Made by a program: the position numbers and the translations under genes. Shown one piece after another: positions 52,851-54,394 of a stretch of 64,000 bases of DNA. The notes below the pieces were generated by a model that saw only the letters and a list, made by a program, of their open reading frames with translations, made no database searches and was not told the origin of the DNA. Position 1 is the first letter of the stretch; each line of letters opens with the position of its first letter. The DNA is from Candidatus Latescibacterota bacterium (GTDB lineage Bacteria; Latescibacterota; UBA2968; GCA-2709665): the NCBI GenBank assembly GCA_965237675.1, contig OZ250150.1, positions 3,904,001-3,968,000 on the forward strand. Reading direction: 5' to 3'.

Positions 52851-53080
52851 AAGCGAACACCGCTCCGACGCGATTATTCCTTACCGGAAAACACCACAGG
52901 AAAACCGAGAGGACTTACTGTAAAACATATGTTGAAGGCATGAATTTAAATTTGCCTGATTAATTCAGTAGAGTCGAGATGTGGCGCGGTGGTTTAGGAG
53001 GTGCCTATCTGTTTCCGCCCCTTTCGTCTGGCGGTGCCTCAATAGCCTCTCCGTGCTCCGTCTCCACCTCCCGCTCGTCG

Positions 53081-53939
53081 GTAGGGTCGAGAACTGGCGC
53101 GCCGACGGTAGGGTCCGGTGGCCGTTCCACCGCTTTCGCGATGGGCCTCAGTCCGGCTCCCGTGGTCACGTTTCCAACTCCCGCCGCGTCAAACCCGGCG
53201 TGCCGTTTGCCGGCACCGGGCTTTCCTGCTGATTTCCTCTCAAGGGTTATGGGACCTATTGTACCGGAGTGGCTTTCGGCCCGTGGTCGTCAACCCGATA
53301 CTCAGAAAAGAGTTCGAGTCCTTTGTATAGCCACTGCCTACTCCACCGCTTCCAGCCAAATCAGCCTTCGCCTTGAGATATATTCTCCTTCTCAGGTCCT
53401 GCACCTTGATGGGCGTGTTTGTCATTCCGCCCGTGCCTCCCTTTTTGTTGGAGAATGGTCAACAGCAGGGCGCCTTCGCTCCACGGGCATTACCCCACTT
53501 CTTCGCTACTACGCGCCCCTCCGCCACCCTCTCACCTTCAGCCCCCTTCCCGGTGTCTCCGGTTATAGGGCTTACCTTGCTCTGGCGATTTCGCGCCAGG
53601 GCGAGGAGGGCTTCTCCAGTTGCTCGGTATGTCCTTGTCAACGTGCCATCGCTACCACCCCGCCGAAGTGGGGCAGCCGTCTCATTCAGCATTCGGCTGC
53701 CCATGCTGCCTTCGCCCTCTGGTTGTGGGCTCGGCCTTCGGGCCTTCGCACTTTCGGGGCCACCTCTGCGTTCACTGCGCGTTACGGCCCAATGACTCGC
53801 TATCTCCCCCAGGGAGACTCTGTCGATAGGCTTCAGGATTTTGGTTTCCCGCCACCCTGCTATCCAAGCTACGGGGCTGCTGACTCTTACCCCGGCAGGA
53901 CTGTCTCCTGCTGAACATGCCAGCCTTCGCTGGACACAC
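53081..53939 (-). mobile_element. Inner ORF-deleted group II intron (859 nt) inserted in domain V of the outer intron
   Basis: 5' GTGTG at 53939; own DV AAGCCCGGTGCCGGCAAACGGCACGCCGGGTTT; 3' CTCGACCCTAC at 53081. Removing it restores GTCCGGTT|CGACGAGCGGG. Confidence 0.9.
53290..53425 (-). pseudogene. Remnant of the inner intron's RT/maturase ORF (first and last codons only)
   Basis: MTNTPIKVQDLRRRIYLKAKAD is joined out of frame near 53360 to FGWKRWSRQWLYKGLELFSEYRV. These are typical N- and C-termini of intron-encoded proteins. Confidence 0.8.
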
Positions 53940-54394
53940 AACCGGACGTGCGGATTTCCCGCATCCGGCTCTCGGACAAGGATTCATGCGTTCGCCCACG
54001 GAAGGTTGCGCGTCTGCACTTCCAGCCGGGCCAGTCCCAGGGTATCGTAGAGGACCTCGTAAGGGAAGCGTGAGGTTCCCTTTCCCGGTATCCTATGCTT
54101 GTTGCACAACCACCAGCGGAGCCGATGTCGGGTGTGGGCATCCCCACTCCGGTAGGCTTTGCTGACCGGTCCAAGACAGAAGTAGTTGCCCCAGCCTACC
54201 AGCTTTCGGTTCAGGTGGGCAATCCGTTCTTGAAGGTCTTTCAGCAACCACCGTCGCGCCGTTGCCTCGCTGATGGCCTGGCAGATGCGCCGGATGGCCT
54301 TCTTTGACGGGCGCGTGCCCAGGTAGGCCCTGCCCGTTTTTGGCGAGTAACAGCGTGAGATGGTGTAGCCCAGAAAGTCAAATCGTCCTTCTAA

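Follow-up and report, generated by a model that had tools for sequence, protein, structure and literature searches.

A group II intron lies inside the catalytic domain V (DV) of another group II intron in a 64,000-nucleotide (nt) stretch of a Candidatus Latescibacterota genome (assembly GCA_965237675.1, contig OZ250150.1, positions 3,904,001 to 3,968,000; this whole stretch is referred to as the window). On comparative sequence evidence, we put the probability at roughly 85% that this twintron arose from a group II lineage that normally homes into DNA encoding the 3' half of DV in other introns. The reading draws on the exactness of the insertion, the recurrence of DV flanks among relatives of the inner intron, the several host classes involved, the covariation of two exon-binding sites (EBS1 and EBS2) with the flank, and a control set of other introns.

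The inner intron is inserted exactly, one nucleotide before the end of domain V

Searching the genome by BLAST with pieces of the window gave four copies of the outer intron, cp1 (the window copy) to cp4. Two of these, cp3 (C1:522853-520887) and cp4 (C1:4793952-4792005), are uninterrupted and colinear with the outer parts in the window. Across the insertion site, marked by a slash, they read ...CACGTCCGGTT/CGATGAGCGGG..., that is, GTCCGGTT/CGATGAG. In the window, the outer DV runs as GAGCCGGATGCGGGAAATCCGCACGTCCGGTT (53971..53940); the inner intron then begins GTGTGTCCAGC at 53939 and ends ...CTCGACCCTAC at 53081, and the outer sequence resumes with C at 53080, the final DV nucleotide, followed by GACGAGCGGG. 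The empty sites thus fix the insert at exactly 53081-53939 (859 nt), a shift of one base either way failing, with the insertion point between the second-last and last DV nucleotides of the outer intron. Once the inner intron is removed, the outer element is complete as an intron: cp3 and cp4 are colinear with it and fold into DV and domain VI (DVI). A second twintron, cp2 (C1:2684269-2687105), lacks the insertion sequence (IS) found in the window copy. It stands at another locus, between other flanks, and its inner intron occupies the same position in DV. The original prediction, that a second intron with canonical ends cuts the outer DV one nucleotide before its end, is borne out by the empty sites of cp3 and cp4 and by the second twintron.

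Between cp1 and cp2, 15 of 860 aligned columns differ in the inner intron and 109 of 1,978 in the host (Fisher p = 1.8e-6). Because the guests are more alike than the hosts, the sequence comparison favours an independent or later arrival of the inner intron at cp1 and cp2 in this genome. Gene conversion between the guests may also have played a part.

Exon-binding sites covary with the flank

The outer DV holds both intron-binding sites of the inner intron, IBS2 (CGCAC, 53952-53948) and IBS1 (UCCGGUU, 53946-53940). The EBS1 loop lies at 53730..53714 (GCCC-ACAACCAGA-GGGC), where folding gives a stem of 4 bp that closes a loop of 9 nt. Its segment AACCAGA pairs with TCCGGTT at six of seven positions, as originally proposed, and the corresponding AACCGGA of cp2 pairs at all seven. 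Among the 15 differences between the two inner copies, A>G at 53720 is the only one within EBS1 and falls on the only mismatched position, indicating that the window copy carries a mutation there.

For the wider family, we aligned the first 300 nt and the flanks of 96 distinct members among the matches listed from a genome scan (described below). Six EBS1 columns track the last six flank bases, DV-unrelated targets included: TCCTTC stands against GAAGGA, TTCCGT against ACGGAA, ATCCGT against ACGGAT, AACTGT against ACAGTT and ACCCGG against CCGGGT. Together with the full match in cp2, this loop-flank covariation confirms the predicted EBS1. A second loop segment, GUGCG in the window (53751-53747), tracks flank positions -13..-9 and on that pattern is taken as EBS2; the pairs here are GUGCG with CGCAC, GTGAG with CTCAC, GAGAG with CTCTC and GTGGA with TCCAC, together with GAATT for a flank of AATTC and CAAAA for TTTTG.

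Permutation and slid-register tests used the 80 of 96 aligned rows with ungapped EBS columns. The 40 distinct EBS1/IBS1 pairs have on average 4.9 of six positions paired, against 3.62 when shuffled, and the 47 distinct EBS2/IBS2 pairs 3.64 of five, against 2.96; in both cases 0 of 2,000 shuffles reach the observed mean. Sliding the EBS columns by 1-3 positions gives at best 2.64 (EBS1) and 2.62 (EBS2). Pairing by EBS1 and EBS2 together implies a recognised target of about 13 nt in the 3' half of DV, CGCAC-G-UCCGGUU.

One sublineage (L044, L061 and L105, with L057, L031 and L068) has both EBS1 and EBS2 retargeted and sits at non-intron sites, for example directly after TTTGGCGAAGGA. Its pairing is good, TCCTTC matching GAAGGA and an A-rich EBS2 matching TTTTG.

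Domain V flanks recur among relatives of the inner intron

The scan covered species-representative genomes and used the first 29 nt of the inner intron, degenerate at six positions and without any flank. It returned at least 127 matches at at least 119 loci in 73 assemblies (L030, apparently the same contig as L002, was counted once); counts given here and below refer to the matches listed. A 5' flank was called a DV hairpin where at least 7 of its last 8 nt could pair with an 8-nt segment situated 29-35 nt upstream. By this test 94 of 127 matches follow a DV hairpin, five follow the 3' end of a same-type intron in tandem, eight have a flank resembling the DV 3' strand only, and one flank is too short to judge; the other 19 have different flanks, although two of these, in L133, are DVs in which 6 of 8 positions pair. 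Of the 73 assemblies, 51 hold one or more DV-hairpin flanks, and the 34-nt DV flanks comprise 62 distinct sequences. The commonest flank 8-mers, GTCCGGTT (32), GTCCGGGT (27) and GTACGGTT (9), are close to the GTC(C/T)GGTT expected in advance of a DV-targeting lineage. With 94 matches flanked by DV at the same position, the earlier proposal that this lineage homes into DV of other introns is supported.

The 3' end was located in 46 of the 127 matches and in the two window-genome copies. There the 3' flank mostly starts with C or T and continues into the host junction between DV and DVI (J5/6) and DVI itself. Two size classes dominate: 28 of the 46 measure about 1,900-2,000 nt, including copies with intron-encoded proteins (IEPs) of 432-455 amino acids (aa), and 14 measure about 830-930 nt and lack an open reading frame (ORF), as do both window-genome copies. 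Four members fall outside both classes: one is 490 nt long and the other three measure 2,535-2,801 nt and include at least one nested pair. The IEPs of L122 and L131 (437 and 455 aa) match RVT_1 and GIIM only. They thus have reverse transcriptase (RT) and X/maturase domains and no D/En HNH endonuclease domain, the arrangement called endonuclease-minus (En-minus). En-minus IEP lineages are given as classes A, C, D, E and F in PMC3552965.

Carriers, as labelled, include Alpha-, Gamma- and 'delta'-proteobacteria, Acidobacteriota, Nitrospirota, Methylomirabilota, Terrimicrobiaceae, Anaerolineales, Gemmatimonadota, Rhodothermales and Latescibacterota. The same 29-nt pattern gave 0 matches in the viral contigs scanned. 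Among 61 relative genomes, a close 5' match was found in G019 only. Three copies in G060 and one in G020 match the last ~146 nt only, at 77-79%, and sit at non-DV sites (AACAC-N8-11); considered as counter-examples, they were set aside and treated as a different sublineage. Locus L021 (G010, 3950-4300) holds a decayed inner-like 3' fragment with a degenerate DV, beside a 361-aa transposase-looking ORF. The fragment lacks the last 27 nt, between two GACCCTACCG repeats, and the sequence 3' of it weakly resembles the host post-DV region; it was left out of the evidence.

Hosts of several classes, nests and tandem arrays

We assigned host class by the nearest upstream same-strand Rfam match to domains I to IV (D1-D4). 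The hosts fall in RF02003 (the window genome, G000, twice; L033, L042 and L051), RF01999 (L002, L035 and L078), RF02005 (L070) and RF02012 (L059).

Some sublineages invade DVs of their own lineage; at L035, a member sits in the DV of a member that itself lies in an RF01999 host. Such invaders have an adapted EBS1, ACCCGG with CCGGGT or AACCTG with CGGGTT. The original prediction that the inner intron's own DV ending, CCGGGTT, as a poorer match, may limit self-insertion was therefore only partly right, given that elsewhere adapted-EBS1 sublineages do invade their own kind. In tandem arrays at L048, L079 and L092, the new copy stands at the DV junction, upstream of the resident copy. At L154 (G004), two host-type introns stand head to tail (...CTACTCTAC/GTGCGCC...), and tandem arrangement is thus not confined to the DV-homing lineage.

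L002 (1-1085) is a three-level nest. An RT ORF is broken directly after its YADD codons by an ORF-less RF01999 intron (GTGCGCC..., at about nt 204), whose DV (~873-905) is in turn broken at 906 by an inner-lineage intron; the contig ends inside this guest. A burst of the lineage is seen in CAVWVF01, an alphaproteobacterial metagenome-assembled genome (MAG) that accounts for 32 of the 127 matches; its loci are L035, L048, L079, L092 and about 25 more. There, ORF-less copies carry other members of the lineage in their DVs, full-length (2,002 nt) as well as ORF-less (927 nt), and such members also form head-to-tail tandems. The invaded DV has AAC in place of the AGC triad.

As a control we took 27 RF02003 loci from relatives, in 23 of which the GTGYG end could be placed. 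A DV flank was found in 0 of 21 other RF02003 introns of relatives (host-type introns and the G020 element; scores 3-6), and both window-genome inner copies score 8/8. The DV flank is thus not a trait of the whole RF02003 class.

Anatomy of the two introns

As read from the sequence, both introns and all window features lie on the minus strand (Table 1). Each intron starts with GUGYG and has a DV hairpin with an AGC triad and a bulged A at -7.

Table 1. Features of the twintron in window coordinates.
Feature	Position	Strand	Details and basis
Outer group II intron	52968..57503	-	5' GTGCG at 57503, 3' ...CTCGACTCTAC at 52968; ends defined by four genome copies
Outer domain I core	57340..57477	-	Rfam RF02003 (group-II-D1D4-4), 100.1 bits, gathering score 49
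Outer EBS1 (putative) UGAAUU	57285..57290	-	Loop homologous to inner EBS1 loop; complementary to 5' exon AATTCA; homology of position
Outer IEP ORF, N-terminal part (RT domain)	56095..57009	-	RVT_1, E = 2.9e-33; cut off by IS
IS, 1,700 bp, within outer IEP ORF	54395..56094	-	Missing from cp2-cp4; DDE_Tnp_1_4 transposase
Outer IEP ORF, C-terminal part (maturase/X domain)	53984..54394	-	GIIM, E = 1.2e-14
Outer DV, first 32 of 33 nt, GAGCCGGAUGCGGGAAAUCCGCACGUCCGGUU	53940..53971	-	RF00029 33 bits, RF04356 partial; hairpin fold in uninterrupted copy
Inner intron, 859 nt, ORF-less	53081..53939	-	5' GUGUG, 3' CUAC; ends set by empty sites
Inner domain I core	53777..53913	-	RF02003, 119.4 bits, gathering score 49; full model 1-138
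Inner EBS2 GUGCG	53747..53751	-	Complementary to host DV CGCAC (5' exon -13..-9); covariation, best register
Inner EBS1 AACCAGA	53718..53724	-	Loop fold and covariation; cp2 AACCGGA, window copy G>A at 53720
Inner IEP ORF remnant, N- and C-terminal ends only	53259..53490	-	Deletion junction 53361/53360
Inner intron's own DV AAAGCCCGGUGCCGGCAAACGGCACGCCGGGUUU	53191..53224	-	Sequence and fold
Inner J5/6 and extended DVI	53081..53190	-	Bulged A at 53087, 7 nt from 3' end; fold
Outer last DV nucleotide (C at 53080), J5/6 and extended DVI	52968..53080	-	Bulged A at 52974, 7 nt from 3' end; fold of cp3
Outer intron 3' exon TGAATTAATCAGG	52955..52967	-	Same as last 13 bp of IS at 54395-54407

Against the 1,990-nt intron of L131, the inner intron is 92.9% identical over nt 1-579 and 91.4% over nt 580-859, with 1,132 nt missing between, and tblastn with the L131 IEP matches its remnant ORF over aa 1-46 and aa 418-455. 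By this alignment, the inner intron is a deletion derivative of an L131-like full-length intron. It has group II termini, a D1-D4 core and a DV and DVI with bulged A, and it has no RT/maturase ORF. The missing IEP is compatible with group II membership, ORF-less derivatives being accepted as group II introns.

In the uninterrupted cp3, the sequence from DV to the 3' end folds at -69.6 kcal/mol (z = -5.5) into a DV hairpin and an extended DVI, in which an A bulges out 7 nt from that end. The inner DV folds as a hairpin AGCCCGG.../...CCGGGUU; the fold of the whole inner 3' region resembles that of cp3, at a z of -1.64 that is not distinguished from shuffles. Rfam models, put forward earlier as a check on the anatomy, agree in part: RF02003 recognises both introns, RF00029 gives 33 bits only (gathering score 40) on the split host DV, and on the inner DV RF00029 has no match at E <= 1, probably owing to the ~100-nt DVI.

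The outer intron spans 4,536 nt owing to its two insertions, its uninterrupted copies measuring ~1,950-1,970 nt. BLAST against the genome shows about 17 near-full-length copies of the IS at 54395-56094 (92-95% identity) and more distant relatives; in the window copy, the DDE_Tnp_1_4 transposase is itself in pieces, in at least two frames. The outer intron family homes into IS terminal inverted repeats, at their inner edge: three of its four copies in the window genome and two in G012 have a 5' exon ending ...ATTCA (the loci include cp2, cp3, L149 and L164), a target that the putative outer EBS1 UGAAUU (57290-57285) fits. At these sites the 3' exon is an IS end and reads either TGAATTAATCAGG or CAAAAAGAGGTAGTTTCC; the second of these resembles the left end of the IS. 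Other outer-type subfamilies in relatives occupy other sites (...ATCCATG, ...TGATA, ...GATTCG..). The ~260 nt 5' of the outer intron (57504-57763) recur across the genome in dozens of copies with 70-87% identity; another repeated element probably ends 13 bp from the intron.

Introns of the RmInt1 type are En-minus and target ISs. The outer intron resembles them in its IEP fragments, which match RVT_1 and GIIM only, and in its IS-end target (...ATTCA in three of four window-genome copies). The inner lineage shares the IEP without endonuclease domain but differs in targeting introns rather than ISs.

The window copy is probably a fossil

By tblastn, the window genome has no IEP gene of the inner lineage, only four host-type genes at 36-39% identity. 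Of the host-type ORFs, that of cp4 reads through and may start at a GTG; a single in-frame stop interrupts those of cp2 and cp3, and the IS breaks that of cp1. Without an ORF, without a matching RT in the genome and within a host whose ORF is IS-broken, the inner copy in the window looks immobile. Judged from its sequence, it is probably a dead copy, a fossil of the system, and the twintron system in the window genome looks decayed, the EBS1 mismatch of the window copy being a further sign.

Points against domain V homing, and alternative explanations

Several observations weigh against DV homing. The permutation test takes the sequences as unrelated; EBS2 is the weaker case, with only 8 of 47 distinct pairs fully paired; and EBS3/IBS3 was not located. 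By the pairing test, 27 of the 127 listed matches are not at a full DV hairpin, and host class was assigned by distance to an upstream Rfam match, not from full host models. L131, the closest full-length relative listed, starts (reverse-complement position 2861) not in a DV but 6 nt past an unrelated perfect 17-bp palindrome, and its EBS1 pairs at four of six positions only; this site may reflect ectopic insertion, or may hint that hairpins are recognised. The CAVWVF01 MAG alone gives 32 of 127 matches, many with identical flanks, and copying of composite host and guest could contribute to the flank counts. In the window genome, cp1 and cp2 are mutually closest host copies (94%, against 91% and 88% for the other copies), and a single invasion may have been followed by composite retrohoming and gene conversion.

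The RNA-library contigs are uninformative on splicing. The data comprise eleven RNA runs (5-12% of sampled words) and contigs of X1, X2 (RNA), X12 and X13 (kind not on record), aligned at 90%. The joint 53080>53940, an exact 859-nt skip, occurs in one contig each of X1, X2 and X13. It is not counted as splicing, because the uninterrupted copies have the same joined form as DNA and X13 may itself be a DNA run. In the metagenomic runs X1, X2, X12 and X13, contigs over the host DV (53920-53970) are 10-100x as deep as in neighbouring bins, and many loose ends begin at 53940. Evidently the sampled communities hold many introns with this DV sequence, some then followed by other sequences.

If a composite twintron had spread as a unit after one old chance insertion into DV, the flanks would be hitch-hikers and no DV-specific homing would be needed. 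The closeness of the cp1 and cp2 hosts fits such a history, as do the identical 45-nt flank shared by more than 25 listed matches of one MAG and the recurrence of the outer-type flank CTTGTCCGAGAGCCGGATGC... in MAGs labelled as several phyla. We nevertheless hold it to be unlikely: there are 62 distinct DV flanks in 51 assemblies, the hosts come from four Rfam D1-D4 families, the flank covaries with both EBS1 and EBS2, the guests in the window genome are three times more alike than their hosts, empty host copies persist in the same genome, and tandem arrays carry the new copy exactly at the DV junction, upstream of the resident. Recognition of DNA hairpins in general, with DV merely a common stable one, would account for insertion at the 3' base of a hairpin and for the L131 site beside its palindrome. 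Subgroup IIC introns, which insert at terminator hairpins, have such a hairpin-defined target and a short IBS1 and are not known to have an EBS2 (in part PMC12584367). The inner lineage matches RF02003 and, unlike IIC, has a 5-nt EBS2 and a 6-7-nt EBS1 that both covary with the flank. Its retargeted members sit at non-hairpin flanks that match their EBSs (such as TTTGGCGAAGGA), and the flanks of eight listed matches resemble the DV 3' strand but lack the 5' strand that a hairpin would require; this explanation is very unlikely.

Misjoining of two intron copies at a shared repeat deserves thought in a genome rich in introns and ISs, all the more as the sole listed contig piece crossing either junction (X1 record 5, 53633-53969) has 30 letters on the DV side, one below the 31-letter threshold for bridging. 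The chance of such an artefact is nonetheless minute, given that the same junction occurs at two loci here and in 51 other assemblies from different groups and methods, and that the junctions are base-exact, with canonical intron ends that restore the host sequence. Equally far-fetched is a circularly permuted or otherwise rearranged single intron, with the DV located 5' of GUGUG as part of the same ribozyme. The direct adjacency of DV to the 5' end of domain I, taken alone, does resemble a permuted order, and permuted introns, of the order D5-D6-D1-D4, are known in bacteria (PMC8637638). However, neither a DVI nor an exon lies between DV and GUGUG, the inserted element has normal domain order with its own complete DV and DVI at the 3' end, the last DV nucleotide, J5/6 and DVI of the host resume directly after it, and the uninterrupted host copies contradict a single rearranged ribozyme.

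Proposed mechanism

On the comparative evidence, the invader recognises its target by pairing EBS2 (GUGCG) with CGCAC and EBS1 (AACCGGA) with UCCGGUU. It enters just before the final DV nucleotide and points the same way as its host. The choice of DV is probably explained by its 3' strand, which is nearly identical across group II introns: one EBS setting could then find targets in several structural classes, and point changes in EBS1 may follow DV variants. Full-length members of ~2.0 kb encode the 432-455-aa RT/maturase, without endonuclease domain in L122 and L131, and mobility is probably endonuclease-independent, by reverse splicing into DV-coding DNA with primers supplied as in other En-minus introns. 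The ORF-less window copy, with 1,132 nt of ORF gone, would need a protein in trans from the IEP of a relative.

The insertion parts the host DV from J5/6 and the DVI branch site by 859 nt, and the host would regain normal DV-J5/6-DVI geometry only after the guest splices out. That the outer intron splices only after the inner one is a reasonable inference from this anatomy.

Comparison with known systems

Insertion of mobile introns into other mobile elements, introns among them, is established, and a few twintrons are on record. In the psbF twintron of Euglena gracilis, the internal group II intron reportedly breaks the external DV and leaves first (Copertino and Hallick 1991). That case differs in being a single organellar locus with degenerate ORF-less introns, for which no recurrent DV-homing lineage is known to have been proposed and no EBS covariation is known to have been described. 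In Methanosarcina acetivorans, introns reportedly home into related intron ORFs, not into DV as here, and the nests are known from one archaeal genome. Homing into group II introns in M. acetivorans is repeated and site-specific, as here, with nests up to five deep and a perpetual homing site (PMC4424553); the same source treats Euglena chloroplast twintrons as established.

In Thermosynechococcus elongatus, the ORF-less TeI3 lies within TeI4 and, like the inner intron, homes by EBS/IBS pairing to a conserved site of another mobile intron. The inner copies there are more alike than their diverged hosts, the pattern seen here, and were read as recent independent insertions; they need an IEP in trans, which may hold for the window copy too. 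Insertion into other mobile elements, ISs or introns, is named as a proliferation strategy. The T. elongatus site, by contrast, is not in catalytic DV but in domain IV, where the host ORF has its first and second ATG on either side of it, and its hosts are close relatives in one genome (PMC2882425), as against at least four Rfam D1-D4 families in many phyla here. Trichodesmium erythraeum has a bacterial twintron like that of the window, with sequential splicing shown experimentally, but its inner intron sits in host domain I at a single locus, and a targeting lineage is not in evidence there (PMC4649490). A plant mitochondrial intron that invaded itself is also on record (PMC7049729). Specialised targets listed in 2025 include terminators (IIC) and a start/stop-codon clade (IIB1), and section 3 of that paper names no DV homing among them (PMC12584367).

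The literature we searched, several key older works aside, describes no bacterial lineage with DV as standard homing site across classes. The wider proposition, that this is an undescribed, widespread group II lineage living obligately at the expense of other group II introns, whatever their structural class and its own lineage included, we judge evenly balanced between true and false.

Significance

The window copy is an ordinary-looking fossil; the interest is in the lineage it revealed. What would be new is a lineage with the catalytic heart of other group II introns as its standard address. Nests of this kind are overlooked by annotation pipelines that expect one DV per intron, and twintrons lost in annotation have been reported (PMC8919778, PMC4028801). 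The relatives provide a natural set of EBS/IBS variants for studying drift in target specificity, and carriers labelled as the cultured Paraburkholderia, Caballeronia, Bradyrhizobium and Desulfofustis make experiments possible.

If the reading is true, repeated re-invasion of the same junction would produce the tandem and nested arrays, and the system would be a natural case of a host ribozyme whose activity is gated by removal of its guest, with host splicing and mobility both depending on it. The lineage would then be a natural anti-intron element and could offer a route to intron fragmentation, with DV set apart from the rest. It would also be one selfish ribozyme parasitic on another, across structural classes and phyla.

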